Assembly (NCBI GenBank): GCA_018691345.1
Contig: JABGTJ010000112.1
Span: 242-64,241, forward strand
DNA: 64,000 nt
Direction of reading: 5' to 3'
Source of the DNA: Methanobacteriota archaeon
Lineage (GTDB): Archaea > Thermoplasmatota > Poseidoniia > Poseidoniales > Poseidoniaceae
The translations under genes and the position numbers were made by a program. The notes under the pieces were generated by a model, which ran no database searches, was not told the DNA's origin, and was given only the letters and a program-made list of their open reading frames with translations. Below, one piece after another: positions 28,575 through 60,200 of the stretch (position 1 is its first letter; the number at the start of each line of letters is the position of its first letter).

Positions 28575-28709
28575 GCGAGAAGCGTTTTTGTCTTGAACCT
28601 CACCCCTCTCAGAGGTCGCATCTTGAGTTTCTTTTGACCTCGATTTCAAAGCATGCCGTCGAAAGGCGGTAGGGTATGTTTCAAATCGTTAGACCGCTAC
28701 GGATTGTTG

Positions 28710-39964: not shown

Positions 39965-40090
39965 GTTTACGGGAAATACCGTCAAAGGTATCAAAACCTT
40001 CGGTCATTGGCTAATTTCCAACACTCTGCTGTGAACGGACGTCGAAATGGAAGGGGTGAGTTCATGGGCGTCCTTCAACTGCACAGGGGT

Positions 40091-44685: not shown

Positions 44686-44828
44686 ATTACATCGTGATGG
44701 CTCAAAGGACATGAAACATTGCTTTGAGCCATATTCTTATTAATTCGACTTATTTTACCCTTTTTCTGCTACCAATGCGTCTTTAGTATGCCTTTTATGC
44801 ATAATGGGTTATTTCTGTTCCATTTCGG

Positions 44829-45317
44829 GTGAAGGGGCATGAGGCAACCGATTCTTTCAATAACCGGCGGGTCGCAAGCCAAATCATGGTAGCGGCTCGT
44901 ATGTCTCGTAGAAGTCGCCGCTTTTCCAAGCAGATTCAACGCACAAATACTCGCTTTGACCTGCAAACTATTGCCAGTTCAGTGCAAACGCATTTGGACA
45001 AGCGAGACATCACTTATGACGAGGCACTGACCCTCGGCAACCTCATCCAAAACCGAGCAGACCAACTGCCAGGCGACACAATCGTTTACGCAATTTCGGA
45101 CCGTGATGCTTACCGTCGGACCCTTGAATTGTATTTACGTGACGCCCTTCTTACGAAAACCGAACAGATGCTGCTCTGGGAGGAGCGCCGCAGACTCGGC
45201 ATTTCCGACATCGACCACGAACGCCTTCTTGAACAGCTTTTACTTCAATGGCGCCGCCAGGGTAAGAAAGTGACCATCGCTCGTTTCGATTCACCGGGGG
45301 GTGACTCTTCTGCGTGA
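44829..45317 (+). CDS. Hypothetical basic protein (162 aa), first gene of the co-directional cluster leading to the archaellum genes
   Basis: Open frame with an Arg-rich N-terminus (RMSRRSRRFSKQIQR) and helical C-terminus. GTG start lies ~25-30 nt downstream of the TATA-like TTTTATGC (44791-44798). Alternative ATGs at 44886 and 44901. Overlaps the next gene by 17 nt. Confidence 0.4.
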   Translation: MKGHEATDSFNNRRVASQIMVAARMSRRSRRFSKQIQRTNTRFDLQTIASSVQTHLDKRDITYDEALTLGNLIQNRADQLPGDTIVYAISDRDAYRRTLELYLRDALLTKTEQMLLWEERRRLGISDIDHERLLEQLLLQWRRQGKKVTIARFDSPGGDSSA

Positions 45318-48300
45318 ACACGCCAATCGGCAAACGCTGCTCGCAGCGTTATTGGTTGCGCTCTTCGTCCTGCCAATGTATTTGCCTTTGGCAAATGCAG
45401 ACGATACCGAGGACACAAGTACAGCCTCTGGCCGTGCGATTCTCGACTTTTATTTCCGTAACCCCCTCCAACTGAGCAACTCGGGTTCAGCAGTTATCGG
45501 TTCGAGCCTTTTCCTCGAACCCGGGGAGCACATTGTCACGGCAAACATTTCAGCAACCGGCTCTGGAAACGATGAACTTTGGCTCGTCTTGCAACACAAA
45601 GGCTCACCTTCACTCGGCTTCGCAGATGTCAAAAGCATCTCCATGGGCAGCGTCAATGGTGCATCAGGGCAAGTTGATCTCACTCCGATTTCGTTTTCTT
45701 GGAACGCTACCAACGGCGCTGGACAAGAACTCCGCGTTAAAATCGTCTCGACAAAGGAGACCGGTAACGACCTCCTCAACAACATCCAAGACGTCGGTTT
45801 TTCATTCTCAGTCGAGAATAAACATCTTGGAGAACTGATGACAAATACATTCCCTGCTGATTCGCCGATTAACAACCGGATCTCCTTGCCAAACGCAATT
45901 TCCACACTTAACACGACGGTTACAAATTCCGGAGTCAAACCAATATCGGCAACGATGACCATTGTACTGCGAGATAATTCTACGCCTGCGAATGTTGTCA
46001 CTGTTTTATCAAATACGGTATTGCTTCAGCCCGGTTCCCATCCAGTTTCTTCTGCAACACTCCAAGAGTCGGGCGTTCTAAGCGCTAGTGTTGATGCTCA
46101 AGCACTGACTGGAGTTTGGAACATTTCTGCATCGGTGAAATTTGATGGAACTTCATGGACCGAAACCATTGTTTTCCGTGAGTCTTGGGTAAAATTCTCC
46201 GACTACAATGCCATAGTGATTGAGCCTGTGACTTTAGTCGTCGAACCAGGGGATGCTACGGCCATCACATTCGTTGTCAAAAACACGGGTTCAGCGACCG
46301 ACCTGTTCACGATATCGGTTACACAAAACAAACCATGGGCTGATGTCAACTCAGCATCATTTGGCGCAACACTTCCTGCAGGCTCCATACGATTGATTAC
46401 ACTCGATGTCAATGTCCCTGCGAATGCAGTACGTTCTGAGACGGATAAAATCACCATTACTTTCACATCTGTAAACTCTCCTGATAATTATCAGATTTCT
46501 GGTGTCGGACGAGTCATGGTTGGAGATTTCTTCAGAGGCGAGGTCTCTTTGATTGAGGGTGCAACGACCAAAACCATCAATCCTGGTGGCCAAGCACAGT
46601 ACATAGCCCAAATCGAAAACACCGGGAGTGTGACCACAACATACACTCTGGCGACCGGACTTTCAGTATCGACGCTTAATTGGACATGGGAGGTTAGCCC
46701 TTCCATCACACCTCCAGTCTCATCCGGCGACACCACGCAAGTCGTTGTGACGCTCACCGCTCCGGCAATTCAGAATCCCATCGTCACCAGCGAATACAAC
46801 ATGGCTGGAGATGAACTTGACGTATGGATTCAATGCCAGCCTATTGGCGGAGGAGTTCCTTCACAAGACACTGCACCAATCGAAGTGTCACCGGTTATTG
46901 TCGTTGACCCTGGAATCGACCTTGAACCTCAGCACATACCGGTCGAAAAAATTAAGCAGACACTCACTGGAACGCAACTTGTCGAAAACATTGACTTGAA
47001 CATGCGCGTTATTCACAACCTGCCTACAATGCTTACTGAGACACTTAACGCTACGTTAACCACGTCAAAATCGTTCACAGCACTGAACGAAGGCGGATTT
47101 GGAGAGGCAGAGAGATGGTCCGTTTCGGTCTCCAATCCGATTTACACTGGCCTTACTCCGGGGGACAGCATGAATACGACCCTCGATATCATCGGTCCTC
47201 AGGCAAATCAATATCCAGTTGCAGGCACATTTGCTGCCTCATTGACCATTACGCCAACTTTGAGTCAAGCTTTAGTCGGCAGTGGGGTCACCGCTGTCCC
47301 TCTCACGCGAAACTACACGCTGGTTATCCCTCAAGTCATCACGGGGGATTTCCTCGATGCAGGGCCTTATGACATTCCAGTTGGTGTCGATAACATCATC
47401 CCAATGCGATTCGCAAATACTGGGAACGATGTTGGTTCGTACCGGCTAAGAGTGGTCGATAATCTTCCTGATAATTGGACTGCCAATTTCTCTGGTACCG
47501 ACCAAAACATCAGCAATTTAACTGCTGACATTGCCGATGGAACGCTCGACGGCTCAACTGGAAATGCAGCACACATCCAAGTTGTTTCGTTCAACATCCG
47601 CACCGATCCATTGGCGCCAGCAGGTTTGAATCAACCGATTACTGTTCGAATTGAAGATCCGGTTTCTGGCTTGCTGATTGGAAGTGAGCATGTATTCTAT
47701 GTTGTGGTCGGGCAGATCTTCAACGGCAGCCTCACACCCACGAATCAATCGCTTGAACTTGACCTCTCAGAATCAACTTTCACTTCAATAACCATTGTGA
47801 ACACAGGTAACGCTCCTACAGATTACGAGGTTTGGTTGGATAACTCTCTCGCAGGCGATGTGGAGTTCAAAATTGAATCTCCGAGCAGTTCCAGTATTTT
47901 CATTGCCGCTGGCTATGAAGAGACCATTCGAGTGGAGATGAATGCAAATGATGAGGCGGACTCCGATGGATTCTACATGACGACCGTGTGGGTTTCGGCC
48001 AATAACGGCCAAATTCTTCTCTCAGCAAACGTGGTCGCCAACATCACTGAAAACCATTCTATTGGCATCACAGCCCCAGAACAGATGGCTGTTACTCCAG
48101 GGCAGATTGAGCAAGTGGATTTCGACATCATTAACCTGGGTAATCTACAGGAAACGGTCGGAATCAACTTGACGGTTGAAGGTAACATTTCGCTGTCGAT
48201 GTATCAACTCACGCAAACGATTCCAATCGATGGAACCTATTCTGACAGCGTGAATGTAGCAATTCCAAGCCTTGGAGGGACCGATACACTCGTGCAAGGC

Positions 48301-50301
48301 TCAGTGTACAATCTCACAATCACGGCAATCAATGCGACGACTGGAGTTGTGTATAACTTGCACACAGTGCAACTTCTCATTCAACCGCTGTTCATAGTCG
48401 AGTCGTCAGACTGGCCTTCAGTGATGGAGTTCCAACCAAAATCAACGCGCACTTGGGAAGTCACGCTCACCAACACCGGTAACAAGGATGTCACTGTGAA
48501 TGCTGTGTATGCGATTACACGGCCTGGTCTCAGTAATCTGTCGACGGATTGGGAAATGATTACACAACCATCGCTCATTGTTTTACCTCGCAACACACAA
48601 GTCGTTCACACGTTTACCGCAGTTGGGACAATCAACCAACCTCTGCTCTCTTTGACTGCGGATTTGACACTTTTCCTTGACCCAACTGAATCGGAAGTTG
48701 AGGGCAGTGGTGAATTCACAACTCAATTGGTCATGTCGAGGTTCTTTACGACTGGCGATATTGGGATTGAACCAGATATCAACAGTGATTTTGTTAATGT
48801 GTTTTTGCCATACACGAACATTCCAACCGGTAACGGCAGCGAAGTTGCGTACATGGTCGAACTCTGCGACTCAAAACGTTTGTTGAATCTTGAAGCCATG
48901 GGTCTCTCCGAGTTTGAATATTCGTGGAACTTCACGCTCTTCGTCGACAAGTTCGATGGAAGTTCAGATGAATACCCACTCAACCTTGATCAGGAATGTG
49001 GCGCATCGTCTCTCGGACCAACTAATCGATATAACCTCCTCGAACTCGATGCTTGGAATCCATCCAGTATTCGTATTCAAGCAGAAACTCCAACGAAAGG
49101 GTTCATTCTGCCCGGCGACGGATGGGACCTCACATTCCGACTTTATCACCCAGATGAAAACAACGGTTACACCGTTTACGATGAGGAAACTTTTTCCTTG
49201 GTTTTAGCAGTCTTTGCCGACCCAATGATCAAGGCCATGTCCTCAAGTGGGACGTTCAAAGAAGGCACTGAAAGCACCATAACGGTCGTTGTTCAGAACG
49301 TCGGTTCAGCTACTGCACTCGACGTCGTTGTCGACTTGCAGTGTGAAGGGCTGACCATCTCAAACCTTGCGTCCGAACGTCCTGCGCTCTTGAACCGTTC
49401 AGTTTCAAGCGGACTTAACTATTCGATGATTCCATTCTTCTTCGCCACCCAAGAACGAACGTTCACCTGGACCGTAACTGCTGAGTCCATCGATTGGTGG
49501 TCTCAGCGTTCTGAGGCAACTTGTGTAGCGACACTGAATGCTTCATTCATGCAAAACAACGTTGTTGAAAACGACCAGTTGACGTTGAAGGAAGATGTCA
49601 TCTCTTGGTCACCCGGAGTCTCGAGCAGTTTCGTTGCTGCAGTCACTTGTTTACTCGTTTCCATGATTCTGTTCCGGTTAACTTCGCAAAATGACAACTT
49701 CCGCCTCTTGGCCATCTACGCTGGCGTCATTGGCTTCGGTTTCTCATTCCATGTATTCCAGTTCGCATGGTGGGGCTTTGTAGTTTTGACTCTCGCAGCA
49801 TTATGGATTTGGAGAATGACATGGAAGAGCACAGATGAGTTCCGTCTCCTTCACGAGGATTACCAGCGTGCTCGAAGAGGTATCTCCACACTGTATGCTG
49901 ATCATTTCGAAGAGCTTGCAAGCAGTCGCCGACAACTCCGAACAATTCTCGGCATGCCAGTTCTTGGAATGCTAGCCATCATTCTTGGAATCCCTCCAAT
50001 GCTCACTGAAGACCGAACAAACGTCGTCAGTATCGCAGCCTATGTCATTGTCGTCATGGCTGGAGTTTGGTACCTCATCAACCGTGCCAACAACATGTAC
50101 GGTGCGCTTTATGGACGCCTCACAGACATTGAAGTCAAAGCAATTCGTATCGAGCGTGACCTGAGCGACCCTGCTCGATTATTCAACGAACTCGCTGGCG
50201 ATGGATTGAACCTGGAGGATATCTTTGGAGCCGTTGAGGCATCTCAGCCATTAACTCCAGAACATCTTTATTCAACTGAGGAGGTGAATGATGATGCCTG
50301 A
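45301..50301 (+). CDS. Giant envelope protein (1666 aa): signal peptide, at least 8 CARDB/NEW3-like beta-sandwich units, C-terminal 5-TM bundle
   Basis: Signal LLAALLVALFVLPMYLPLANA. Repeated x-N-(T/S/L/V)-G unit starts: VTNSGVKPISATMTIVL, VKNTGSATDLFTISV, IENTGSVTTTYTLAT, FANTGNDVGSYRLRV, IVNTGNAPTDYEVWL, IINLGNLQETVGINL, LTNTGNKDVTVNAVY, VQNVGSATALDVVVD. Five hydrophobic helices are encoded at 49620-50080. Confidence 0.85.
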   Translation: MTLLREHANRQTLLAALLVALFVLPMYLPLANADDTEDTSTASGRAILDFYFRNPLQLSNSGSAVIGSSLFLEPGEHIVTANISATGSGNDELWLVLQHKGSPSLGFADVKSISMGSVNGASGQVDLTPISFSWNATNGAGQELRVKIVSTKETGNDLLNNIQDVGFSFSVENKHLGELMTNTFPADSPINNRISLPNAISTLNTTVTNSGVKPISATMTIVLRDNSTPANVVTVLSNTVLLQPGSHPVSSATLQESGVLSASVDAQALTGVWNISASVKFDGTSWTETIVFRESWVKFSDYNAIVIEPVTLVVEPGDATAITFVVKNTGSATDLFTISVTQNKPWADVNSASFGATLPAGSIRLITLDVNVPANAVRSETDKITITFTSVNSPDNYQISGVGRVMVGDFFRGEVSLIEGATTKTINPGGQAQYIAQIENTGSVTTTYTLATGLSVSTLNWTWEVSPSITPPVSSGDTTQVVVTLTAPAIQNPIVTSEYNMAGDELDVWIQCQPIGGGVPSQDTAPIEVSPVIVVDPGIDLEPQHIPVEKIKQTLTGTQLVENIDLNMRVIHNLPTMLTETLNATLTTSKSFTALNEGGFGEAERWSVSVSNPIYTGLTPGDSMNTTLDIIGPQANQYPVAGTFAASLTITPTLSQALVGSGVTAVPLTRNYTLVIPQVITGDFLDAGPYDIPVGVDNIIPMRFANTGNDVGSYRLRVVDNLPDNWTANFSGTDQNISNLTADIADGTLDGSTGNAAHIQVVSFNIRTDPLAPAGLNQPITVRIEDPVSGLLIGSEHVFYVVVGQIFNGSLTPTNQSLELDLSESTFTSITIVNTGNAPTDYEVWLDNSLAGDVEFKIESPSSSSIFIAAGYEETIRVEMNANDEADSDGFYMTTVWVSANNGQILLSANVVANITENHSIGITAPEQMAVTPGQIEQVDFDIINLGNLQETVGINLTVEGNISLSMYQLTQTIPIDGTYSDSVNVAIPSLGGTDTLVQGSVYNLTITAINATTGVVYNLHTVQLLIQPLFIVESSDWPSVMEFQPKSTRTWEVTLTNTGNKDVTVNAVYAITRPGLSNLSTDWEMITQPSLIVLPRNTQVVHTFTAVGTINQPLLSLTADLTLFLDPTESEVEGSGEFTTQLVMSRFFTTGDIGIEPDINSDFVNVFLPYTNIPTGNGSEVAYMVELCDSKRLLNLEAMGLSEFEYSWNFTLFVDKFDGSSDEYPLNLDQECGASSLGPTNRYNLLELDAWNPSSIRIQAETPTKGFILPGDGWDLTFRLYHPDENNGYTVYDEETFSLVLAVFADPMIKAMSSSGTFKEGTESTITVVVQNVGSATALDVVVDLQCEGLTISNLASERPALLNRSVSSGLNYSMIPFFFATQERTFTWTVTAESIDWWSQRSEATCVATLNASFMQNNVVENDQLTLKEDVISWSPGVSSSFVAAVTCLLVSMILFRLTSQNDNFRLLAIYAGVIGFGFSFHVFQFAWWGFVVLTLAALWIWRMTWKSTDEFRLLHEDYQRARRGISTLYADHFEELASSRRQLRTILGMPVLGMLAIILGIPPMLTEDRTNVVSIAAYVIVVMAGVWYLINRANNMYGALYGRLTDIEVKAIRIERDLSDPARLFNELAGDGLNLEDIFGAVEASQPLTPEHLYSTEEVNDDA
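50278..50287 (+). promoter_or_regulatory. Shine-Dalgarno site (GAGGAGGTGA) for the 362-aa gene, inside the 3' end of the giant gene
   Basis: GAGGAGGTGA lies immediately upstream of ATGATGATG at 50288. The upstream stop (50299-50301) lies inside the new ORF, which is translational-coupling geometry. Confidence 0.65.
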
Positions 50302-51376
50302 TGAAGAAATTGTCGACCCTTCCCTCGAGGAAAAAACTCTGGATGAAATGCCTCAGTTTGAAGAGGAAGAACAGCCGTCCTCGGTTGAAGCCGACAACAC
50401 GGCTGTGAATTCTTCTCTTAGCTCTGGAGTTCAAACAGAAGAGGTAGCCAATGAGGCTCCTCCAATGCCTCCAATGCCCCCTTCTTCATCCCAGCCACAG
50501 CGTCCATTGCCCCGTGATATGGAAACAATGGTTCTCGGTATCGCTCACGATGATACGAATTCTCTTGCAGGCACTGAACTTGAAATCAGTGAAGCAAAAA
50601 GCTTCTTGCAATCTCACAAACTCAGCCGTGCTTTATCAAGCGTCAATAAGGCAGAATCATCGTTAACCGTACTTGAAGAAGATGTTTTGTACCTACGTCG
50701 TAACATTGCAATGCTCCATCGGTTGCTCAATGAAAAGAAAGTCAGCGAGAATGATATTGAAACGATTCTTCTTCGATTGCGAAGTGCAACTGGTGCAGCT
50801 GAAATTGGTGATGTCGGTGGTGCTGCAGGTGAAGTTGAATTCCTTGTTGACGATTTGATTGGTGGAAACACTTCAACCCTCAACCCGTTCTTATTCCGAC
50901 ATTTCTGGATGGGCTTGGAAACACGCTGGCCTGCTGGCGGTGACGAGGGCGTCTTGGTCGTCCGCATCATTAACGACGGTCCTGTGGCAATGCCGCCAAT
51001 GCGCCTCTCTCCGCCGGTGCCTGATGGATGGGCTTCCACGCCTTCATCGGTTGACCTTCCAACAATTGCTCCGGGTGGTAACTTACCTGTCCGGTTTAAC
51101 GTGTCAGCAAATCGCCGTTACGGTGCAGACGAAATACCGTTATCTCGTAAATTAGCAATAACCACCGGATATGAAATCCGTACCGGTGAAGTTTTTGTCA
51201 CCATTCGTGCACAGAACCGTTCAATGGAACCTCTTGCAGACATCCTCCTCTCACCTTGGTTCCCGCCGGGTTACACCGCAGATGCAGTTCCATTCGTGGA
51301 ACGTCTTGCTCCAGACGAAGTGGCAATTATTCGAATTCCACTTCGTATCACAATGAGTTCAGGAGGTTCTTCTTAA
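50288..51376 (+). CDS. Hypothetical acidic protein (362 aa): disordered acidic/Pro N-terminus, coiled-coil-like middle, beta-sandwich-like C-terminal half; no signal peptide
   Basis: Long open frame with a strong SD. Segment VLVVRIINDGPVAMPPMRLSPPVPDGWASTPSSVDLPTIAPGGNLPVRFNVSAN resembles CARDB/NEW3-type units. No TM segment. Confidence 0.7.
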   Translation: MMMPDEEIVDPSLEEKTLDEMPQFEEEEQPSSVEADNTAVNSSLSSGVQTEEVANEAPPMPPMPPSSSQPQRPLPRDMETMVLGIAHDDTNSLAGTELEISEAKSFLQSHKLSRALSSVNKAESSLTVLEEDVLYLRRNIAMLHRLLNEKKVSENDIETILLRLRSATGAAEIGDVGGAAGEVEFLVDDLIGGNTSTLNPFLFRHFWMGLETRWPAGGDEGVLVVRIINDGPVAMPPMRLSPPVPDGWASTPSSVDLPTIAPGGNLPVRFNVSANRRYGADEIPLSRKLAITTGYEIRTGEVFVTIRAQNRSMEPLADILLSPWFPPGYTADAVPFVERLAPDEVAIIRIPLRITMSSGGSS

Positions 51377-51430
51377 CTCAGTCCGTTTCCACCCTTTATG
51401 GGGGATAAAAAATAAAAAATGGTGAAAAAA

Positions 51431-51982
51431 ATGAAAAAAAATACGAACGAAAAAAGCGATAATATCGCTGCAATTGGTATCGGTGCAATGATTGTGTTCA
51501 TTGCCCTGATTTTGGTTGCGGCGGTTGCAGCAGCGGTGATTATTCAAACCGCTGAGAAATTGCAACAAAATGCACAAACAACCGGTGATGAAACAACGTC
51601 TTTGCTGTCCTCGAAAGTGGTCATCAAGAACGTCTTGATTCCATCCGCTGGGGCTTTGTACATTACCTTTGAACTGGCCCCGGGATCTGACCCGATTGAC
51701 CCATCAAACATTGACTGGTCAATTGTGTGCGCTGACGGCGTTGACTACGGCAACTTTGCAACAGCAACAACTGTTGGTGACCAAACTGCAGTCAACCCAC
51801 TCACTCCTGGTGCTACGTTTGACGTGGTTCTTACTGCCGCAGGTGCTGGTGGACTCTTAGACGAGTGCGCTCCAAGTGCTAACGAAGACCACACGCTTGC
51901 AATCCAATCTGGTGCAGGTGGATTCACATACGAAGTTCTGAATTATGGAGCCGATGTTTCTGCGGGGGCGAAAGTCATATGA
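51431..51982 (+). CDS. arlB: Archaellin 1
   Basis: Class III signal peptide plus conserved hydrophobic N-terminus AIGIGAMIVFIALILVAAVAAAVIIQTAEKLQQNAQTTGD. ATG 51431 (MKKNTNEKSDNIA) aligns with the start of archaellin 2 and has GGTGA 5 nt upstream. Alternative ATG 51419. Confidence 0.9.
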   Translation: MKKNTNEKSDNIAAIGIGAMIVFIALILVAAVAAAVIIQTAEKLQQNAQTTGDETTSLLSSKVVIKNVLIPSAGALYITFELAPGSDPIDPSNIDWSIVCADGVDYGNFATATTVGDQTAVNPLTPGATFDVVLTAAGAGGLLDECAPSANEDHTLAIQSGAGGFTYEVLNYGADVSAGAKVI

Positions 51983-52647
51983 AGTCCAACACCCGTAACG
52001 ATATTCAAGAAGACAAAATCGCTGCCATCGGTATCGGTGCAATGATTGTCTTTATCGCTTTGATTTTGGTTGCAGCTGTAGCTGCAGCAGTTATTATTCA
52101 AACTGCTGAAAAACTTCAACAAAACGCACAAACTACCGGTGACGATACTGCTGATAACATGGCAGGTAAACTTCTGGTTCAACAAGGCTTTGTTGCTACT
52201 GGCGGCAATGGAGGTTCTCCAGCCATCATGACTCCGGAAGAAGCGTACATGTTCTTTGTACGTCTCGCACCTGGTAGCGAACCTGCACCAATCAACGAGA
52301 TTACCTTCCAGTTCTTCTGTGACAACGGTGTCCGTGAAGGTACCATCGGCGACCCTGCTGGACCAGCAGTTGCTGCTGGTGCAGTCGCACTGATGGATGT
52401 TGTTGATCCAACAAACGCAGCGCAGTTGCTTGATTCCACTACTGGAATTATGCAACCTTCCACAGGCTATGTCATGTGGATTGATGCGAACGGCGGACAA
52501 GTCGGAGCAGCTAACCTTGGCCTAAACGATTGCAGTCCTGACAGCGGAGATTCCAAAGTCGAGATGTACATCCACGTCGGAAGCGGAGGAACAACCTTCG
52601 CAACCCTCGATATTGGAACGACAACTTCGGGTTCACTGGTTATCTGA
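51979..52647 (+). CDS. arlB: Archaellin 2
   Basis: MKSNTRNDIQEDKIAAIGIGAMIVFIALILVAAVAAAVIIQTAEKLQQNAQTTGD. ATGA overlap with archaellin 1. The C-terminal domain is divergent. Confidence 0.9.
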   Translation: MKSNTRNDIQEDKIAAIGIGAMIVFIALILVAAVAAAVIIQTAEKLQQNAQTTGDDTADNMAGKLLVQQGFVATGGNGGSPAIMTPEEAYMFFVRLAPGSEPAPINEITFQFFCDNGVREGTIGDPAGPAVAAGAVALMDVVDPTNAAQLLDSTTGIMQPSTGYVMWIDANGGQVGAANLGLNDCSPDSGDSKVEMYIHVGSGGTTFATLDIGTTTSGSLVI

Positions 52648-52689
52648 TTACGACTAAGGGTGCCGATGCCGAAAGGCAACACTGCCCTT

Positions 52690-52695
52690 AGGAGG
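52690..52695 (+). promoter_or_regulatory. Shine-Dalgarno site (AGGAGG) for the 282-aa gene
   Basis: AGGAGG lies 7 nt upstream of ATG 52703 and directly abuts the 3' arm of a small hairpin (52655-52690). Confidence 0.6.
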
Positions 52696-52702
52696 TTCTA
52701 TT

Positions 52703-53551
52703 ATGGCATGGCCATTTAGCGGAAACGCAGATAAAAACAGAGATGCAGATGCAGACCTTACGGAGGAACGACTGAAGATTATGGCAAACATTGCCATTGA
52801 ACAAGTCCCTCTTCCAGAAGAAGGAGAGCTCAGCGAAGACGATGCATGGACGATCAGTCCAAGTCCGACACGGGCTCGTATGAACAGCGTTGGAAGTGTT
52901 CCAACAGTAGCGGCAACTCTTGCCCCTTCAACACCTGTTCCTGTGAGTACGACCGTCGACACTTCTGGATTGGAACGTCTTATTAGCAGTCGCCTTGACA
53001 TGGTCGAGGACGTTTTGCGGATGGTTGAAGTCCGATTAGATACTCCTCATTCAGCCCCTGCAATGGACGCTGAAGGAAATCCGGTTATGAATGCTGAATC
53101 TATGGACGGAGGGTCCATGATGGGTGGAGACACCATCGTCACTGCAAGTGGCGAAGTAATCTCCGCCTCCGGAATGGATCGTCTAAAGAGCGTTGATGAA
53201 GCCCCTCTCGTTGAACTTTACGAAGCGCAAGCACTTGCTGCGAATCCTTTCTTGCACGCGCCCTCAACCGGCGCTACAACGAAGGCGAATCAAGTCGGTG
53301 CACCTACCGTTTCAGCTTTACTTCTGGACAGTATGTCTGGGATGGCTGCGGTTAGTTTCGCTCAGAAAGCAATGTCTTCAGGAATGTTATCTGAACAAGA
53401 AGGACGAGCAGTCCTGGCAATTGTTCAACTGGCAGCACCTGGTGAATCCGAAGCGGCTTTAGACGACCATCTATCGCACAAGGAATTGTTGGTTTTCTCT
53501 TCGTTAATCAGTTCATGGCGTGAAGTGCAGTCACTTCGAGGTGAACTCTGA
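52703..53551 (+). CDS. Hypothetical protein (282 aa) in the position normally held by ArlC/D/E or ArlX
   Basis: Open frame with a good SD, no TM segment, acidic N-terminus, Ala/Ser/Met-rich. I recognise no ArlD/E or FlaC motifs. Confidence 0.6.
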   Translation: MAWPFSGNADKNRDADADLTEERLKIMANIAIEQVPLPEEGELSEDDAWTISPSPTRARMNSVGSVPTVAATLAPSTPVPVSTTVDTSGLERLISSRLDMVEDVLRMVEVRLDTPHSAPAMDAEGNPVMNAESMDGGSMMGGDTIVTASGEVISASGMDRLKSVDEAPLVELYEAQALAANPFLHAPSTGATTKANQVGAPTVSALLLDSMSGMAAVSFAQKAMSSGMLSEQEGRAVLAIVQLAAPGESEAALDDHLSHKELLVFSSLISSWREVQSLRGEL

Positions 53552-53552
53552 T

Positions 53553-54257
53553 ATGGGTGCTTCGGCAGGAATTGGCGGTCTCATAATTGGGATTGCAATG
53601 TTGATGGTCTTTACAATGGCCATATCATCATTTGATGCTCAAGTTGCAACCGGATTGGATGCAATAGAGAGCGCTTCAGTTCCTGACCCGAGTTTTACCA
53701 TTGACGATGTTAATCTTGAACAGCATGTCATTCATGAAGTTTCGATAACTGCTGCGAATCGAGGTACAGGTTACGTTGATGGGATTTTGAGAGCGAACGT
53801 TGGTTCGGACGAATGTGGTGGATTTTCCGCTACCTTCTCGACAACAGGTGGAGAAATTGATGTAGGAAACGTGGTTATCACCAACCATGGTTTCTGCCCT
53901 GATTCATCCACACCGACTTGGACGATTTTTGATACGTCACTCGTTGTTCAAACACCCACATCAGTTGCTAATTTCTCATCGCCTGTGTTCCGGCAATACA
54001 TCTATGCAAACATCACAAACCATGGTGAAGACCTTCTAAAGACGGACGACATTTGGGTATTCTATAACGGGGAAGAGCCTGAGACGCTCACGGAATCTCA
54101 AGACTCAACACGGTCTGAGATTTCTGGAGTCGGTACCAATTGGTACTCTGGGCAAACCATCCCGTTGTTTTGGGATGGCGAATCGAGTTTGAATACCGAA
54201 TATGAGCGATTGGCATTCACAGCCGGTCCGACTACATTGGTGCGATCCACATCTTGA
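53553..54257 (+). CDS. arlF: ArlF-like archaellum protein (assignment mainly by position and N-terminal hydrophobic helix)
   Basis: Start trimmed to ATG 53553 (MGASAGIGGLIIGIAMLMVFTMAISSF), 1 nt after the upstream stop. Archaellin-like N-terminal helix followed by a beta-rich domain. Confidence 0.55.
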   Translation: MGASAGIGGLIIGIAMLMVFTMAISSFDAQVATGLDAIESASVPDPSFTIDDVNLEQHVIHEVSITAANRGTGYVDGILRANVGSDECGGFSATFSTTGGEIDVGNVVITNHGFCPDSSTPTWTIFDTSLVVQTPTSVANFSSPVFRQYIYANITNHGEDLLKTDDIWVFYNGEEPETLTESQDSTRSEISGVGTNWYSGQTIPLFWDGESSLNTEYERLAFTAGPTTLVRSTS

Positions 54258-54267
54258 GGTTTTTATC

Positions 54268-54774
54268 ATGGCAGATGGCGGAGTTTCAACTTACATCATG
54301 CTGATTACTGCATTGCTGGTTTCCAGTTCTGTCAGTGCAGTTTTGATACAAGAATGGTCCTCTACATCACGAGTGATTCAACAGCAACAACGCGGAATGC
54401 AGTTCTCAGAAGAGTTAGGTATCGATTTTGCTGGAGACCCCATGAATGTCCACATCGACCGCACTACAACTCCCGATGAAATCACGTTCTATGTACTGAA
54501 CACTGGTGAACATCGAATGGATGAAGATCAAATGGAAATTCTCATCGATGGCCAGGTTATTCCGAATACAGGAGTATCAACATCCTTTGTAGGTACCCCC
54601 GCACCGTTGGCGTGGGATTCGAACGTGCTGATGGAAATCGTCTTGTCGAATACTTCATTTAACTCCCTCACAGACAATACCGATCTCAGTGTTTTTGTAA
54701 CCGTTAATTCCGAGGAAGTAGCAGGAATCACAAGCAGTGCAAGTTTCAACAACGAGGTGCGTTTGAATGGATGA
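54268..54774 (+). CDS. arlG: ArlG-like archaellum protein (assignment mainly by position and N-terminal hydrophobic helix)
   Basis: Start trimmed to ATG 54268 (MADGGVSTYIMLITALLVSSSVSAVLIQEW). Overlaps arlH by 8 nt. Confidence 0.55.
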   Translation: MADGGVSTYIMLITALLVSSSVSAVLIQEWSSTSRVIQQQQRGMQFSEELGIDFAGDPMNVHIDRTTTPDEITFYVLNTGEHRMDEDQMEILIDGQVIPNTGVSTSFVGTPAPLAWDSNVLMEIVLSNTSFNSLTDNTDLSVFVTVNSEEVAGITSSASFNNEVRLNG

Positions 54775-55507
54775 ATACGTTAAGGAAGATCCTTTCATTA
54801 CCGCACACAAACCGAAGGAAGACGGTTTCCCGTACGAACTGGAAACTGATTCACTCGCTGACTCGATGGGGCTGCGAATGCCAAATCGCTCTCTGTATGT
54901 ATTACAGGGGGAAGTCGGTGGTGGAAAGTCACTCCTTTCTCAACGCCTTGCTTTTGGACTTGCTGAAAATGGAGTCAAGGTTTTGGTTATTACCACTGAA
55001 TTAACCACACGAGGATGGATTGAGCAAATGGAATCTCTGGGCTACGGTGTCACTGACTCCATTCGGGAAGGAAAACTCTTGGTGTTCAGTCGATTCGGAA
55101 CCATTGCGGAATCTTTACCAAATGTTGGTCTTGAAGAAGTCTTAGAATCAGAAGCAATTGAACTGGCAGACGTGGTCATTATTGATTCTGCAAGTTCAAT
55201 CATGCCTGAGAATCTTGACGATACGAGTCGATTCCAATTGATGCAAAAGTTGCGTCAAGTTTGTTCCCACGGTCGTTCATTGATGCTTTGCGTTGACCCC
55301 GAAGAAATGGATCACAAGTTAATGCACACCTTACGAGCATCTGCAGAAGTTGTTCTTGATCTGAAAACGGCAATGATTGGCGGTGAAATTAAGCGAAACA
55401 TTGTCATCACCCGTTTCCTGAGAGCAGCAGGACCTATTCAAACATCCATCGGATGGCGTGTGGAACCCGGAATGGGCTTCATCGTAGATATTACGGCGGT
55501 TAGCTGA
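54767..55507 (+). CDS. arlH: ArlH (FlaH), RecA/KaiC-like ATP-binding archaellum protein
   Basis: Walker A LQGEVGGGKSLLSQRLAFGL, Walker B-like VVIIDSAS, 246 aa, located directly upstream of arlI. Confidence 0.85.
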   Translation: MDEYVKEDPFITAHKPKEDGFPYELETDSLADSMGLRMPNRSLYVLQGEVGGGKSLLSQRLAFGLAENGVKVLVITTELTTRGWIEQMESLGYGVTDSIREGKLLVFSRFGTIAESLPNVGLEEVLESEAIELADVVIIDSASSIMPENLDDTSRFQLMQKLRQVCSHGRSLMLCVDPEEMDHKLMHTLRASAEVVLDLKTAMIGGEIKRNIVITRFLRAAGPIQTSIGWRVEPGMGFIVDITAVS

Positions 55508-55516
55508 TGAGGTGTT

Positions 55517-57238
55517 ATGATGGTTGATGATGAGCCCCTATTTGCCAAAGGAGACCTTAACGCGGTCATGAATGCACACCCCCACGTCGCCGACTGGGTT
55601 CGTGATTTCGAATCGAGTCACGGCTCTCGACCGATTTACTACGGTGAATTGGATCGAGGTGCTAAGAAAGAAAGACCTTTCAATCTCATCTACATTACCA
55701 AAGAACCAATCTTTGTTCATATTTACGAACCTCCTGCTGACGAGGAAGGAGGCGGACAGATTCTCTGGTTCGGTCTCGAACCTCAACTCTCCGAAGAAGA
55801 GGAAAACATTCGTCGGGGTCTTATTGAAACTCTACTTCAAGAGGCTCCAACCGCTCCATCGTTTACTACGGATGAGGAATTTGAAAACATTCTCTCACAA
55901 ATGATAGAGAGGTACACACTTCTCGATACAGACGCAATTTCCAACGTTCGCCGACAAGGCCGCTTTTGGGAAATGATGGGTATGGACGACAAGCGGTTGA
56001 TTGTGACTGCCGCTCAGCGAGAACGCTTGCGGTATATCGTTGTCCGAGACTTAATTCGCAACGGCCCATTGGAACCACTACTCTCAGACGAGATGCTGGA
56101 AGATATTCACTCAATTGGTCTAAAGCACGTTCACATGGACCACAAAGTGTTTGGAATGGTCACATCGAACATTCGATTCCGTGACCGCGAAATGCTCTCT
56201 CGTTTCTTGCGAGCCATGTCTGAGCGAATTGGGCGACCAGTTTCAGACAACAAACCGATTATCGACGGCGCACTGCTCGACGGCTCACGTATCAATATCA
56301 TTTTCTCCGATGACGTTTCCATGCTCGGACCGTCGTTTACCATTCGTAAGTTCGCTGAAGAAACGATTTCGATCACGCAACTTATTGCTTGGGGTACAAT
56401 TTCTTCCCAAGTGGCTGCTTACATTTGGATTTGTCTGGAATACGGTATGTCAGTCCTTGTATCCGGTGAAACTGCTTCCGGAAAGACGACCACACTCAAT
56501 GCAATTTTGCCGTTCATCGACCATAACGTCAAGATTTATTCTGCTGAAGATACTCCTGAAGTAAAGGTACGCCACAAGATTTGGCAACGGCTTGTTACTC
56601 GTTCATCGAAGAACGAAGAATCACGAGTCGAAATGTTCGACCTACTCAAGGCTGCTTTACGTAGCCGACCTCGATACATTATCATTGGTGAAATACGTGG
56701 TGTTGAAGGCGCAACCGCTTTCCAAGCAATGCAAACAGGGCACCCGGTTATCGCAACCTTCCACGCATCGTCCATTGTCAAAATGATTCAAAGATTTACA
56801 GGTGACCCAATTAACGTTCCAATTCGGTTTTTCGACAACTTGAACTTCGCTATTTTCCAAGAAGTGGTTGAGGCTCCTGGTGGAGGTATTGCTCGCCGTG
56901 TGACTGGAATCGATGAAGTCATCGGCTACAATAAACACAGCGACGGTGTACTCACCCGTGGTATGTTCGAATGGGACCCGGTCAAGGATAAGCACTATTT
57001 CCGTGGTATGTTCCAGAGCCATCTGTTGGAAAACAAGATTGCTGCAATGGCTGGTTTTTCCAATAAACGAGACATCTATGATGAAATGTTGAAGAGAGCT
57101 GCTGCACTTGACCGTATGGTTGAACGTGAATTGACGCATTACGATGACGTTTTCGATTTATTGGGAGTTTACTATAACAACGGATGGGAACATTTTGACA
57201 AAGCCGTTGATTCATGGACTGGAGTAAACCATACGTGA
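55517..57238 (+). CDS. arlI: ArlI (FlaI), archaellum assembly/motor ATPase (type II/IV secretion ATPase family)
   Basis: Walker A VSGETASGKTTTLNAIL, IIIGEIRGVEGATAFQAMQTGH, His-box ATFHASS. The second ATG at 55520 has better SD spacing (GAGGTG 55509-55514). Confidence 0.95.
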   Translation: MMVDDEPLFAKGDLNAVMNAHPHVADWVRDFESSHGSRPIYYGELDRGAKKERPFNLIYITKEPIFVHIYEPPADEEGGGQILWFGLEPQLSEEEENIRRGLIETLLQEAPTAPSFTTDEEFENILSQMIERYTLLDTDAISNVRRQGRFWEMMGMDDKRLIVTAAQRERLRYIVVRDLIRNGPLEPLLSDEMLEDIHSIGLKHVHMDHKVFGMVTSNIRFRDREMLSRFLRAMSERIGRPVSDNKPIIDGALLDGSRINIIFSDDVSMLGPSFTIRKFAEETISITQLIAWGTISSQVAAYIWICLEYGMSVLVSGETASGKTTTLNAILPFIDHNVKIYSAEDTPEVKVRHKIWQRLVTRSSKNEESRVEMFDLLKAALRSRPRYIIIGEIRGVEGATAFQAMQTGHPVIATFHASSIVKMIQRFTGDPINVPIRFFDNLNFAIFQEVVEAPGGGIARRVTGIDEVIGYNKHSDGVLTRGMFEWDPVKDKHYFRGMFQSHLLENKIAAMAGFSNKRDIYDEMLKRAAALDRMVERELTHYDDVFDLLGVYYNNGWEHFDKAVDSWTGVNHT

Positions 57239-57243
57239 GGTGA
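57237..57243 (+). promoter_or_regulatory. Shine-Dalgarno site (GAGGTGA) for arlJ
   Basis: GAGGTGA lies 6 nt upstream of ATG 57250 and overlaps the arlI stop codon. Confidence 0.6.
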
Positions 57244-57249
57244 TGTCGA

Positions 57250-59052
57250 ATGCAGCGAATGTCTTTCTGGCAAATCGCCCTTCGTCGCGTTGAGATACCT
57301 GTTGCACAATTTCTCCTTTTTTATGTTGGTGGAGCGGCCCTGATTGGGTTTCTGTTTTCCATCGTACTCATATTCTTAACCGGTGGTTTAGCCGAAGGTG
57401 CTCTTTTTTCTGGCGTAGCAGGAATCCTTCTGCTTTTGCTTTTGCCAACTCTTGCCGGAGGAGCAGCAGCCGCATACCCCTTACTCGATGTACAGCGTTC
57501 GGCTACCATGATTGAGAAGGAAATGCACATGTTCATCACTCGAATGGGTATTTTGTCTTTGGGTGAAGTCGGTGCTCAGTCCATTTTCGATATCCTCAAG
57601 CAAATGAGTGATTATGGTGAGTTGGCGAATGAAGTCAAGCGAATTGAAACGCTTGTCGATAAGTGGCACACTTCGTTACCTGAGGCTTCACGAATTGTCG
57701 CTCAGCAAAGTCCAAGTCCATTGTGGGCTGATTTTCTTGACCGAATGGCTTTCTCGATTGAAGCGGGTCAGGCCATTGATGAATTCATGCGTTCTGAGCA
57801 GGAAACTGTTGCAGAACAGTACAAGACGTTGTACGACACACGCCTTGAATCAGTTGATGCCATGAAGGAAATTTACGTTTCTCTGGTTTCTGCAGGATTG
57901 TTCGGACTCGTAGTGGCGGGTATTCACCTTGTCTTGTTTGAAGTCGGTTCAGCGAACGACACACCAATTCTTGTTGCAAGCCGATTGCGGTTCATTCTTT
58001 TGACATCGTTGATTTTCACCATTCTCCAGATAGGAGCGGTCTTTGCTTTCAGAGCGACGATTCCCGAAGACCCTACTTTTGCTCGGGACGATATGGACAC
58101 TCCTTTCAGAATTAATTTCCTCAGAGCGCTCATTGGGGCAAGTATCCTGACCTCATTCTTGGTGGTCATCATGATTTTGTTGCTCGCATCTGCTTGGGAT
58201 TCCGTTACCAACCAATGGGATCGATACGGTCTCATTTTCATCGCTGCCCCACTCTCCCCGATGCTTATTCCTGCTCTCATGATTGGAAGGGAAGAACGTC
58301 AAGTTTTGCGTAGGGATGAAACCTATCCCGATTTCATTCGAGCATTAGGAGGTACGGCCCAAGCTCGTTCGTCTGAACCATCTGCAACAATCAAAGCCTT
58401 GCGAGGCATTGATTTCGGTATGCTTGACCGTTCAATCGATCGCTTGGAGAAGCGTTTGTCGACACGTATTGATTCAGACCGTGCTTGGGATTACTTCAAC
58501 GCGGATACCAATTCAGCGGTTATTTCACGATACACTCGCATCTACATTGAAGGTTCTCAATCATCGGGTAAACCAGCGGACACAGCCGAAATGGTTTCGC
58601 GTTCGGTCGGCAGTTTGCTTTCATTGCGACGACGACGAGCACTCTCTGCAAACACCATGCGTGGTGTCGCTCTTGGTCTACTGATTGCATCTGTAACTAG
58701 TCTTAACGTAACCATCGCAATTGTCTTGAAACTCGGCGACTCAATTGCAGGGGTAGCATCTAATTTTTCGGATACTGATGTCACGGCATTGTCTGACTTC
58801 GGTGCAGGTTTGGCTCTTCCAGTCATGGAAGATGCCTCCGGTGTTGGAGAAAACATCCGCATGTTCAAAATCATCGTATCCATATTGATTCTTTTCCAAG
58901 TCATTGCAGTCTCAATTATTTCGAATAGGTTGCGAGGTGGAATCTGGACAACGGCTATGGGTCAAGGAATTCAACTGCTTTGGATTGCAGGCATCACTTC
59001 ATACATCACTTCGCTGGTGTTAGAGGCCGCATCTTCAGTGTTCGGTGTTTAG
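57250..59052 (+). CDS. arlJ: ArlJ (FlaJ), polytopic archaellum platform protein (two T2SS-F-like domains)
   Basis: 600 aa with ~9 TM helices and two cytoplasmic helical domains. It sits directly downstream of arlI, as in all archaellum operons. Confidence 0.9.
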   Translation: MQRMSFWQIALRRVEIPVAQFLLFYVGGAALIGFLFSIVLIFLTGGLAEGALFSGVAGILLLLLLPTLAGGAAAAYPLLDVQRSATMIEKEMHMFITRMGILSLGEVGAQSIFDILKQMSDYGELANEVKRIETLVDKWHTSLPEASRIVAQQSPSPLWADFLDRMAFSIEAGQAIDEFMRSEQETVAEQYKTLYDTRLESVDAMKEIYVSLVSAGLFGLVVAGIHLVLFEVGSANDTPILVASRLRFILLTSLIFTILQIGAVFAFRATIPEDPTFARDDMDTPFRINFLRALIGASILTSFLVVIMILLLASAWDSVTNQWDRYGLIFIAAPLSPMLIPALMIGREERQVLRRDETYPDFIRALGGTAQARSSEPSATIKALRGIDFGMLDRSIDRLEKRLSTRIDSDRAWDYFNADTNSAVISRYTRIYIEGSQSSGKPADTAEMVSRSVGSLLSLRRRRALSANTMRGVALGLLIASVTSLNVTIAIVLKLGDSIAGVASNFSDTDVTALSDFGAGLALPVMEDASGVGENIRMFKIIVSILILFQVIAVSIISNRLRGGIWTTAMGQGIQLLWIAGITSYITSLVLEAASSVFGV

Positions 59053-59091
59053 TGACCCAACAATCATAATCCCGGTGGATGATTAGCGTTC

Positions 59092-59547
59092 ATGCAAGTC
59101 CCTCCGCCACCACCGGCAGCGCCCGCACCTCAACAAAGCGCTCCAGCACCTTCTCCATATCTCCCAGCAGCAGGCTTCCAGCAATCACCAATGAGTTATT
59201 CTTTTCATCGATGGTTGATGCTCGGTATCATTCTCGTACTGGCATCTGTTGTTTTTGTTGAAGTTGTTGGAATGTTTGGTCCTCCATCTGTGGTTGATTA
59301 CGACCTTGAAGCCGAAGGCGTTTCGGATAAAATTGCGGAAGACACAGAGGCGCATACCGATTTGAATCGGGTCATCGGCTCCGTCGGAACAATACTACAA
59401 TCGTTTGGCCTTGGACTGATCGGCTATGCGCTCCTTCGGGAGTCTTATGATGACAAACATGAACACACAGCCCTCCGAGTGACAGCAGTTCTCATTGGTG
59501 TCCTTGTGGTGTTGAACATTGCCTCGCGCAGTATTTCTATCGTTTGA
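59092..59547 (+). CDS. Small membrane protein with poly-Pro/Ala N-terminus (151 aa), last gene of the arl cluster
   Basis: MQVPPPPPAAPAPQQSAPAPSPYLP, then two TM helices (LMLGIILVLASVVFVEVVGMF; TAVLIGVLVVLNIA). 39 nt downstream of arlJ on the same strand. Confidence 0.55.
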   Translation: MQVPPPPPAAPAPQQSAPAPSPYLPAAGFQQSPMSYSFHRWLMLGIILVLASVVFVEVVGMFGPPSVVDYDLEAEGVSDKIAEDTEAHTDLNRVIGSVGTILQSFGLGLIGYALLRESYDDKHEHTALRVTAVLIGVLVVLNIASRSISIV

Positions 59548-59549
59548 GT

Positions 59550-60200
59550 TCAACGTTTCTTTTCTTGGGCAATTCTCTTTTTCGTTGCCGCCCAAGAACA
59601 GATCGGACATTGTTCAAGATCATGGTTTCGAGCAGGACAGTATTCTCTGCCAAAGAATATGATTTGGAGATGCAATTTATTCCAAATCTTCTTTGGAAAA
59701 ACAGCCTTTAAGTCTCGCTCGGTTCGTACGACTGTTGTGTCGTTGGAAAGCCCCCAGCGTGCTGCAAGGCGATGAATATGCGTGTCGATTGGGAAGGCAG
59801 GGACACCGAAGGCTTGAGCCATCACCACGCCAGCAGTTTTGTGCCCAACTCCGGGTAATGCTTCGAGTTCCTCAAACGTTTGTGGAATCAATCCATCATG
59901 CCGTTCCATAATCAGTTCAGAGAGTCTACGGATGTTCTTTGCTTTCGTTGGAGCTAGCCCAACTTGGCGGATATCATTGAGAATCGTTTCAACGCTCAGT
60001 TTGACCATGGCTTCAGCGATTGGGGCTTTGGCGAAAAGGGATGGTGTGACTTCATTTACCTTGAGGTCGGTGGTTTGAGCACTCATAAGAACTGCAACCA
60101 GTAACTGAAAGTTATTTTCATGGTCAAGCGGCACTGGAGTTTCAGGATAGAATTCTTCAAGCATGGCAGCAATTTTCACCGCTTTTTCACTACGCTTCAT
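59550..60200 (-). CDS. nth: Endonuclease III (HhH-GPD DNA glycosylase/AP lyase)
   Basis: LLVAVLMSAQTTD, HhH LPGVGHKTAGVVM, catalytic Asp context PIDTHIHR. The C-terminal Cys loop is CPARNHDLEQCPIC, with only three Cys visible. Confidence 0.9.
   Translation of the reverse strand: MKRSEKAVKIAAMLEEFYPETPVPLDHENNFQLLVAVLMSAQTTDLKVNEVTPSLFAKAPIAEAMVKLSVETILNDIRQVGLAPTKAKNIRRLSELIMERHDGLIPQTFEELEALPGVGHKTAGVVMAQAFGVPAFPIDTHIHRLAARWGLSNDTTVVRTERDLKAVFPKKIWNKLHLQIIFFGREYCPARNHDLEQCPICSWAATKKRIAQEKKR

Follow-up and report, generated by a model that had tools for sequence, protein, structure and literature searches.

Marine Group II (MGII) archaea are among the most abundant archaea of the surface ocean and have never been cultured. 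In archaella, scaffolds of the ArlC/D/E type are without a membrane anchor. Every archaellum is reported to feature one to three highly divergent genes of the FlaC/D/E class (PMC4858521). The Thermoplasmatales relatives of MGII have ArlC and ArlD (PMC12448462), and ArlCDE co-occur with CheF (bioRxiv 10.64898/2026.04.22.720090); chemotaxis genes are reported to be lacking in MGII (PMC6461757, PMC6864105). The archaellum stator is thought to need an anchor in the envelope (PMC12448462, PMC8978795), and S-layer-like proteins with multiple immunoglobulin (Ig)-like domains occur in the arl loci of Methanococcales and Thermococcales (bioRxiv 10.64898/2026.04.22.720090). In Pyrococcus and Sulfolobus, operon-internal terminators with poly(T) tracts follow the arlB genes (PMC10665913). 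For MGII itself, a "Putative MGII motility operon" was described by Tully 2019 (Nat Commun, PMC6336850; see also Rinke 2018, PMC6461757), in which orthologs of the unannotated genes were already noted descriptively. The same locus is analyzed here in a 64,000-nucleotide (nt) stretch of a Poseidoniaceae contig (JABGTJ010000112.1, positions 242 to 64,241)—the window in the following—where the archaellum (arl) genes stand together with five additional genes, namely g162, g1666, g362, g282, and g151.

The region is best explained as the archaellum locus of Candidatus Poseidoniales (MGII), fixed together with partners specific to the lineage; as a whole, this explanation is held here with about even confidence. 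Four of the additional genes—g162, g1666, g362, and g282—are probably unrecognized parts or partners of the motor, as suggested by their linkage to the motor genes in the related lineages. Their architecture and linkage point to a role in stator or envelope, and translational coupling, the pattern of conservation, and linkage suggest that the trio g162-g1666-g362 forms a complex with a link to the motor. It is debated whether MGII swim or stick, and the means of doing either in the absence of chemotaxis genes is a question of its own. The additional genes are candidates for a replacement of ArlCDE/ArlX in lineages without chemotaxis, and likewise for the stator's hold in the envelope and the tie of the scaffold to the membrane. 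A conserved leader element and two hairpins of the locus would be regulatory handles and could mark archaellum expression in metatranscriptomes.

Gene order and conservation in Poseidoniaceae

A search with ArlH yielded 80 species-representative loci, all of Candidatus Poseidoniaceae/Poseidoniales (Marine Group II a), at 71–95% identity and with the first MG-II genome, CM001443, among them. All window proteins were compared with these loci by tblastn, and presence is counted as loci with the gene out of the loci whose contig covers the site (Table 1); a listing of homologs by similarity features close relatives only among its best 120 matches. Wherever the contigs of the relatives extend, the gene order is invariant. 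The order of the cluster is far beyond chance, being the same in the 80 related species and beyond. As judged by these comparisons, g162, g1666, g362, and g282 are inherited together with arlB/F/G/H/I/J in every Poseidoniaceae locus examined. The proteins g162, g362, and g282 are more conserved than ArlB, ArlF, and ArlG (medians 39–56%) and comparable with ArlJ (77%). Inside Poseidoniaceae, the flanking genes of a peroxiredoxin and of endonuclease III are equally fixed in position; since these housekeeping flanks are equally conserved there, synteny inside Poseidoniaceae alone proves little.

The cluster consists of twelve open reading frames (ORFs) between 44829 and 59547, tightly packed and all on the + strand as judged by the ORF listing of the window. 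The recognizable core has the order arlB1-arlB2-x-arlF-arlG-arlH-arlI-arlJ, with g282 as x, and the layout is of the euryarchaeal arl1 type with arlF before arlG. The genes of g162 and g1666 overlap by 17 nt (45301–45317), those of g1666 and g362 by 14 nt behind GAGGAGGTGA, and those of arlG and arlH by 8 nt; arlB1 and arlB2 share an ATGA overlap at 51979–51982, and a 1-nt gap separates the end of g282 at 53551 from the start of arlF at 53553. A previous reading of the window, made from the sequence only, had given the same coordinates, strand, and junctions, which the ORF listing reproduces, and the same core, with which the family scans agree. The charges and hydropathy that it described fit as well (162 aa, pI 10.0; 362 aa, pI 4.5; 151 aa, two clear hydrophobic segments), and searches of Pfam and NCBIfam (for g162, g1666, g362, and g282 also of PDB sequences) bear out that the five additional ORFs are without a confident match to unrelated characterized families.

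Both archaellins feature a transmembrane helix near residues 22–42. The scores of ArlF and ArlG are all under the equivalog cut-offs. The ArlF model is matched by 10 of 11 diverse arlF orthologs with 7.8e-8 as the best value, the window protein reaching only 0.005, and ArlJ scores 394 bits against a strict equivalog cut-off of 550 bits, hence below it. Searches of PDB sequences with the ArlF alignment and with ArlF and ArlG as single sequences gave chance-level matches only. ArlF occurs in two lengths: 212–234 aa in close relatives and approximately 210–235 aa in three divergent lineages, but 131 aa in a further divergent group, termed group A. The long form carries an insertion of approximately 80–100 aa ahead of the ArlF core (window 53553–54257 compared with L087:10814-11209). 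The start of arlG is most likely 54268 (MADGG, with GAGGT ahead), and that of arlB1 most likely 51431, with GGTGA 5 nt upstream and 51419 as a possible alternative.

Divergent lineages and relocated loci

The g282 family is narrow: when 1.84 billion proteins were searched exhaustively with its profile, no more than 72 representatives came up. Metagenome contigs were fetched with a three-sequence alignment of divergent g282 members—a six-sequence version being too variable—and searches seeded with the most divergent homologs returned almost nothing (word index). Nearly all loci were reached through arl genes or g282, and among them no copy of the additional genes stands away from arl genes; a look-up seeded by a g162 homolog alone landed in the same arl cluster. 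The taxon of the divergent groups, assigned by cluster look-up, is given no finer than Methanobacteriota/Euryarchaeota, and our guess is that they are MGIIb.

The loci of group A have the same flanks as the window and feature g162-g1666-g362, a single arlB, g282, the short ArlF, and G-H-I-J, without g151. The loci of group B have other flanks, lack g162, and read g1666-g362-arlB x2-g282-F-G-H-I-J. The most divergent locus, L161, features g162, g1666, g362, g282, and the arl genes in the same order, while its flanks differ again. Its proteins are identical to those of the window by 66% (ArlI), 49% (ArlJ), 45% (ArlH), 47% (g162), 38% (g362), 25% (g282), and 23% over the full length of g1666. Among the changed flanks of the divergent groups are the large subunit of DNA polymerase II, a hexapeptide transferase, and AhpC on the other side. 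The genomic contexts in which the trio is linked to the arl genes are of three kinds. In divergent lineages, the overlaps of stop and start codons, 162|1666|362, recur. Because the same order and overlaps are found in divergent lineages with changed flanks, the link between trio and arl genes is, by this comparison, old and outlasts relocation.

Across the order, an eleven-gene block g162-g1666-g362-arlB(1-2)-g282-arlF-G-H-I-J is, as judged by synteny, inherited together, and only g162 (in group B) and g151 are dispensable. The lineage-specific accessory module that had been proposed for all five genes is supported in part, for the four that are co-inherited with arl but not for g151, which is unstable and missing from 11 of 62 loci. 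Membership of the 162-aa gene holds for Poseidoniaceae, with 51 of 51 loci, but not for group B. The 151-aa gene drops out as a stable member of the cluster, being in addition replaced or missing in the divergent groups.

The 282-residue protein in the ArlC/D/E slot

The slot of g282 between the archaellins and arlF is kept in all lineages. The protein is probably the divergent ArlC/D/E-class scaffold of the lineage, with the chemotaxis-facing domain exchanged, as its position and motifs suggest. In the diverse alignment, N-terminal MAWPF and EDAWTISP motifs are followed by a helix or coiled coil at 88–113, a linker that is acidic and variable, the LYEAQAL..NPFL motif, and a helical C-terminal domain; E174, N181, P182, F183, and L184 are invariant in the family. 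Matches to the Pfam family FlaC_arch (PF05377) are found in 5 of 15 members at sub-threshold level (12–16 bits, E 0.016–0.27) and align the last 15–38 profile positions (17–54 of 55 at most) to the YE…NPF motif. Replacement of either YE or NPF by alanine removes the match. Because of this loss, the resemblance of g282 to FlaC lies in the YE…NPF signature and not in mere coiled-coil composition. The earlier statement that no ArlC/D/E signature is present was too strong, since the 282-aa family carries the sub-threshold FlaC_arch YE…NPF in the very slot of ArlC/D/E.

The AlphaFold2 model of g282 from the diverse alignment has a predicted local distance difference test (pLDDT) score of 62 overall—80–92 in the five-helix C-terminal domain, with the long helix/coiled coil also confident. 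From a shallow alignment (74–93% identity), the pLDDT was 47 and the model unusable. A profile search of PDB sequences with the g282 alignment gave chance-level matches only. Identity with ArlX was considered and rejected, as g282 has neither an N-terminal transmembrane helix nor any hydrophobic segment. The idea that g282 and g362 are paralogs was likewise dropped: hhalign aligned the NPFL motif only (15 columns, not significant). In both proteins, an invariant NPF(L) comes after a coiled coil, and this motif could be a shared docking signal.

The envelope protein g1666 and its coupled partners

The giant protein g1666 features a signal-peptide-like segment at residues 13–31 and an ectodomain of approximately 1400 aa with 27 N-glycosylation sequons. 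Weak matches to Ig-like families are found for FixG_C (8e-6), NEW3 (8e-4), CARDB, and HYDIN-type domains. Hydrophobic helices at the C terminus lie near 1440, 1483–1503 (a hairpin), 1549, and 1575 as judged by hydropathy; the scan called four segments and five are seen by eye, and the anchor is read as five helices with two cytoplasmic segments. Mean column identity is approximately 0.4–0.55 in the ectodomain and rises to 0.56–0.77 over the final ~170 residues, where the membrane helices and cytoplasmic segments lie. Every lineage retains the C-terminal architecture together with the motifs HEDYQRARRG and YG.LYGRLTD.E.KA.R. A single-sequence search of PDB sequences with g1666 gave chance-level matches only, and relatedness of g1666 to g362 was rejected, as the profile comparison was not significant.

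The acidic g362 features a variable acidic N terminus, a coiled coil of ~100 aa, an invariant NPF…RWP, and a C-terminal NEW3-type Ig-like domain. A match to NPCBM_assoc/NEW3 is found in 10 of 11 diverse members, with the g362 of the window at threshold. Its NPF region alone gives no FlaC_arch match, and a PDB-sequence profile search with the g362 alignment reached chance level only. The basic g162 features an Arg-rich N terminus (R.SRR.RR..K.IQR) and a conserved helical core, YAISDRD.YRRTLE.YL.D..LT.TEQ.LLW.ERR.LG. Searches of Pfam, NCBIfam, and PDB sequences revealed no relatives, which makes it an orphan family.

The small protein g151 has two hydrophobic segments in the hydropathy scan and, read by eye, a third; it has no match in Pfam or NCBIfam. 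The pre-archaellin peptidase is often encoded elsewhere in the genome. No such peptidase (ArlK/FlaK/PibD) is found in the window or within 10 kb of the cluster in Poseidoniaceae loci. After arlJ, the window features g151, group B a FlaK-type peptidase, and L161 a 913-aa protein, whereas none of these is present in group A. The group B protein is polytopic with 334 aa and carries a GGADVK motif and a match to Arc_PepC_II (5.5e-7), which marks it as a FlaK-type A24 pre-archaellin peptidase. A descent of g151 from ArlK was rejected: the g151 profile does not match the FlaK-type proteins of group B, and there is no match to the A24 family. Proteins with a repeated domain (…SLMW.N.NDLDLH..TP.G…GGEL..DMN…P.ENI.W…), for which a weak PPC-domain match is the only one, are encoded beside the archaellum genes of two divergent lineages. 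L161 has the repeated domain fused into the 913-aa protein, which overlaps the arlJ stop; the window carries no homolog.

Promoter, leader element, and hairpins

Upstream of g162, aligned regions of approximately 50 Poseidoniaceae loci feature (C)TTTTATGC(A/G) or TTTATTCA at constant distance from the start codon. From the usual archaeal spacing of TATA box and start, the transcript would begin at approximately 44820–44830. Of the two AT-rich TATA-like stretches that the sequence-only reading had pointed out, 44713–44828 holds this conserved box, but 51393–51419 is the loop of a hairpin and an A-run. The leader of g162 is approximately 60 nt long and includes a near-invariant 21-nt element, ACCGATTCTTTCAATAACCGG, of which 48 loci have a single copy each, always shortly ahead of the first gene; the window, too, has one copy. 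Stops in frame or shifts of frame make the element non-coding in most relatives. It has degenerate versions in divergent lineages, shows no significant fold of its own, and is a candidate operator or RNA-binding site. The start of g162 is most likely ATG 44886 (143 aa) and not GTG 44829 (162 aa), since the stretch from 44829 covers a conserved leader: in 32 of 48 distinct upstream regions of relatives, a usable in-frame start is missing and the element cannot be coding. Shine-Dalgarno (SD)-like GAGGT/GGAGG stands ahead of g362, g282, arlF (53553), arlG (54268), arlH, arlI, and arlJ, and none is found ahead of g162.

Two hairpins bracket the archaellin genes. Hairpin 1 has an SD-like 3′ arm and an anti-SD-like 5′ arm and is found in every one of the 43 distinct spacers of Poseidoniaceae, as well as in a further locus, L164. 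Its arms covary: 95.7% of cells are paired, 5 of 8 pairs feature double changes, none of 500 shuffles reaches the score, and slid controls score much lower—tested with a small covariance model whose alignment was fitted to the structure and thus favors it somewhat, as MAFFT and RNAalifold could not register the arms. It matches no Rfam family. No conserved TATA box is seen in the spacers of relatives between g362 and arlB1. At the site of hairpin 2, a hairpin is present in most Poseidoniaceae loci, with sequences unrelated between clades.

Proposed mechanism and rival explanations

In the proposed mechanism, g282 would form a ring or adaptor under ArlH/ArlI, keeping the FlaC-type coiled coil and YE…NPF, and its C-terminal domain would stand in for the ArlD/E domain that binds CheF, in keeping with the chemotaxis genes reported as lacking. 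g1666 would be a glycosylated, fast-evolving Ig-like surface protein whose anchor and cytoplasmic segments dock the basic g162 and the acidic g362. Together, the three may form an envelope-spanning anchor or collar that gives the ArlF/G stator a hold on the outside and ties the cytoplasmic scaffold, devoid of transmembrane segments, to the membrane on the inside. The block would be transcribed mainly from the g162 promoter, and the two flanking hairpins may set the archaellin messages apart via processing, stability, or attenuation. A more specific version goes further: a dedicated trans-envelope complex, in which g1666 holds ArlF/G and recruits g362, g162, and g282 with NPF as common docking signal, would serve as a chemotaxis-independent stator/scaffold, with archaellin output set post-transcriptionally by hairpins and leader element. 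This version is unlikely.

Several points weigh against the explanation as an archaellum locus with motor partners. The FlaC_arch scores of approximately 16 bits compare with a Pfam gathering threshold of 27.8, the motif is short, and the g282 of the window is itself unmatched. Pfam scans of 15 members of the g282 family and 11 of the g362 family, at E up to 10, do not list Arch_fla_DE (PF04659), although HMMER filters drop most matches above ~0.1 and a very weak similarity to PF04659 could escape. Foldseek of the g282 model against the PDB found nothing, the best E being 0.39. In family and PDB-sequence searches, g162, g362, and the g1666 anchor are without detectable relatives of known function, and because of this their mutual docking is pure conjecture. 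g162 is missing from group B and so is not indispensable, almost all loci came via arl genes or g282 and are not independent of archaella, and the idea of a single promoter is a weak one, drawn from an unseen TATA box before arlB1. Lastly, giant surface proteins other than g1666 are numerous in MGII genomes, with three in this window alone, and g1666 could be an adhesin merely co-regulated with the archaellum.

That last point leads to a rather improbable alternative: a co-regulated adhesion module, in which g162-g1666-g362 would be a giant adhesin with helpers for anchoring or export, co-expressed with archaella since both would be used for particle attachment, and standing outside motor and stator. 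Rinke et al. read the MGII archaellum operon as serving adhesion, with chemotaxis genes absent (PMC6461757). The g1666 ectodomain is fast evolving (35–92% identity) and rich in sequons, like exposed adhesins or S-layer proteins, g1666 is joined in the window by further surface proteins of giant size (2145 aa; 1230 aa, PKD domains; 751 aa), and a separate conserved promoter precedes g162. However, the most conserved parts of g1666 are the membrane anchor and the cytoplasmic segments and not the exposed part, no conserved promoter is seen between g362 and arlB1, and the linkage to arl outlasts deep divergence and three genomic contexts, which is unusual for mere co-regulation. The changed contexts also speak against neutral hitch-hiking, that is, additional genes unrelated to the archaellum that are adjacent by shared ancestry in a slowly rearranging genome. 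The equal conservation of the peroxiredoxin and endonuclease III flanks in Poseidoniaceae would fit such a history, yet these flanks change in divergent groups while the trio stays with the arl genes, overlapping stop/start codons and Shine-Dalgarno sequences are maintained, and g282 sits inside the core, between arlB and arlF; hitch-hiking is very unlikely.

A further alternative concerns g162 only and is compatible with either reading of g1666 and g362: instead of being a partner of g1666, it would be a nucleic-acid-binding regulator acting on the 21-nt element and/or the arlB1 hairpin. Other Euryarchaeota do have regulators dedicated to the archaellum, such as EarA (PMC10665913). The protein has a pI of 10 and invariant Arg positions and is encoded first in the operon, its own leader carries the unique near-invariant non-coding element, and the covarying hairpin sequesters an SD-like arm before arlB1; group B, which lacks g162, has a different spacer, which fits but is no test. 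A regulator of this kind is nevertheless quite unlikely. No helix-turn-helix or other nucleic-acid-binding family is found in g162 (Pfam, NCBIfam, PDB sequences), and wherever g162 occurs its stop overlaps the g1666 start, which suggests stoichiometric co-production with a structural protein.

Features of the window

The G+C content is even over the window (46–52%), and Rfam and tRNA scans of the window gave no matches. Scans for sigma-70 promoters and bacterial terminators stayed at background level; their models are bacterial and uninformative for an archaeon. Besides g1666, the window holds three further very large ORFs (2145, 1230, and 751 aa), of which the two with domain hits resemble surface proteins, so that g1666 is not the sole giant nearby. 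The coordinates of all features are collected in Table 1.

Table 1. Features of the archaellum locus, its surroundings in the window, and loci of divergent lineages. Positions refer to the window unless preceded by a locus name; presence and identity refer to the Poseidoniaceae loci.
Feature	Position	Strand	Description	Loci with gene	Identity (median)
peroxiredoxin (AhpC/TSA)	44200-44712	-	left boundary of twelve-gene block		
TATA-like box TTTTATGC	44793-44800	+	promoter of first gene		
21-nt leader element ACCGATTCTTTCAATAACCGG	44847-44867	+	near-invariant, ~45 nt past TATA-like box		
g162	44886-45317	+	basic (pI ~10) predicted cytoplasmic protein, 143 aa; stop overlaps g1666 start	51/51	66-93% (76%)
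g1666	45301-50301	+	predicted giant envelope protein; signal peptide, Ig-like ectodomain, C-terminal anchor, acidic tail	51/51	35-92% (41%)
g362	50288-51376	+	acidic (pI 4.5) predicted cytoplasmic protein; no transmembrane segment; start overlaps g1666 stop, strong SD ahead	58/58	55-91% (72%)
hairpin 1	51388-51405	+	UCCACCC-loop-GGGGGA, between g362 and arlB1, then A-run		
arlB1	51431-51982	+	archaellin; PF01917 1.1e-22		
arlB2	51979-52647	+	archaellin; PF01917 6.1e-21		
hairpin 2	52654-52691	+	directly after arlB2, abuts g282 SD; -20.4 kcal/mol, z -3.3		
g282	52703-53551	+	predicted cytoplasmic protein in ArlC/D/E slot; no transmembrane segment (hydropathy)	70/70	55-95% (70%)
arlF	53553-54257	+	stator component; NCBIfam ArlF 0.005; N-terminal transmembrane helix		
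arlG	54268-54774	+	stator component; NCBIfam ArlG 1.1e-16; PF01917 3.5e-9		
arlH	54767-55507	+	KaiC-like ATP-binding protein; PF06745 1.6e-13		
arlI	55517-57238	+	motor/assembly ATPase; T2SSE PF00437 3.9e-37		
arlJ	57250-59052	+	membrane platform protein; NCBIfam ArlJ/FlaJ 1.2e-117; PF00482		
g151	59092-59547	+	small Pro-rich membrane protein; variable, non-core appendix	51/62, absent in 11	30-93% (52%)
endonuclease III	59550-60200	-	right boundary of twelve-gene block		
1230-aa ORF	1793-5485	-	PKD domains		
2145-aa ORF	28653-35090	+	weak Reelin subrepeat match		
751-aa ORF	37739-39994	-	DUF7151		
FlaK-type peptidase, group B	L088, L111, L154, L160, L101, L150 (e.g. L154:16284-17288)		directly after arlJ		
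repeated-domain protein	L161:16264-19005				
repeated-domain protein	L088:1088-2314	-			
repeated-domain protein	L111:1940-3127	-			

Comparison with known systems

The ArlC/D/E proteins resemble g282 in their slot between archaellins and arlF, in solubility, in the lack of a transmembrane segment, and in a coiled coil followed by the YE…NPF of the FlaC_arch end. In contrast to them, g282 stays under the Pfam threshold, shows no ArlD/E domain, and features a five-helix C-terminal domain of its own as well as conservation at the N terminus; one gene stands in place of two or three, and its organisms are without CheF and chemotaxis genes. ArlX, the crenarchaeal analog, features an N-terminal membrane helix followed by a coiled coil, whereas g282 has no membrane helix.

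The Ig proteins of the arl loci of Methanococcales (arCOG05057) and Thermococcales (bioRxiv 10.64898/2026.04.22.720090; Makarova 2016, PMC4858521) are, like g1666 in its predicted architecture, large, secreted, Ig-like, and encoded beside arl genes, and they have been proposed to adapt the envelope locally for filament or stator. Unlike them, g1666 features a conserved polytopic anchor of about five helices with cytoplasmic segments and always comes with translationally coupled cytoplasmic partners—two in number, g162 being absent in group B.

The terminators of Pyrococcus and Sulfolobus are, as is proposed for hairpin 2, regulatory elements placed right after the archaellin genes and would let the archaellin messages exceed the accessory ones. 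They carry poly(T) tracts, whereas in the window the archaellin genes have a stable hairpin on either side, neither with a T-run.

The MGII motility operon of earlier work (PMC6336850, PMC6461757) is the same locus in the same organisms, with flanks conserved in MGIIa and variable in MGIIb and without chemotaxis genes; its extra genes were left as black boxes. The claim made here is modest, as the cluster itself was already known and we infer its functional reading. New with respect to PMC6336850 are the architectures of the extra genes and their conservation ranks, the identification of ArlF, a signature in g282 that resembles ArlC, a revised start for the first gene, the variable nature of the 151-aa gene, its replacement by a FlaK-type gene in one group of lineages, and the cis-elements.

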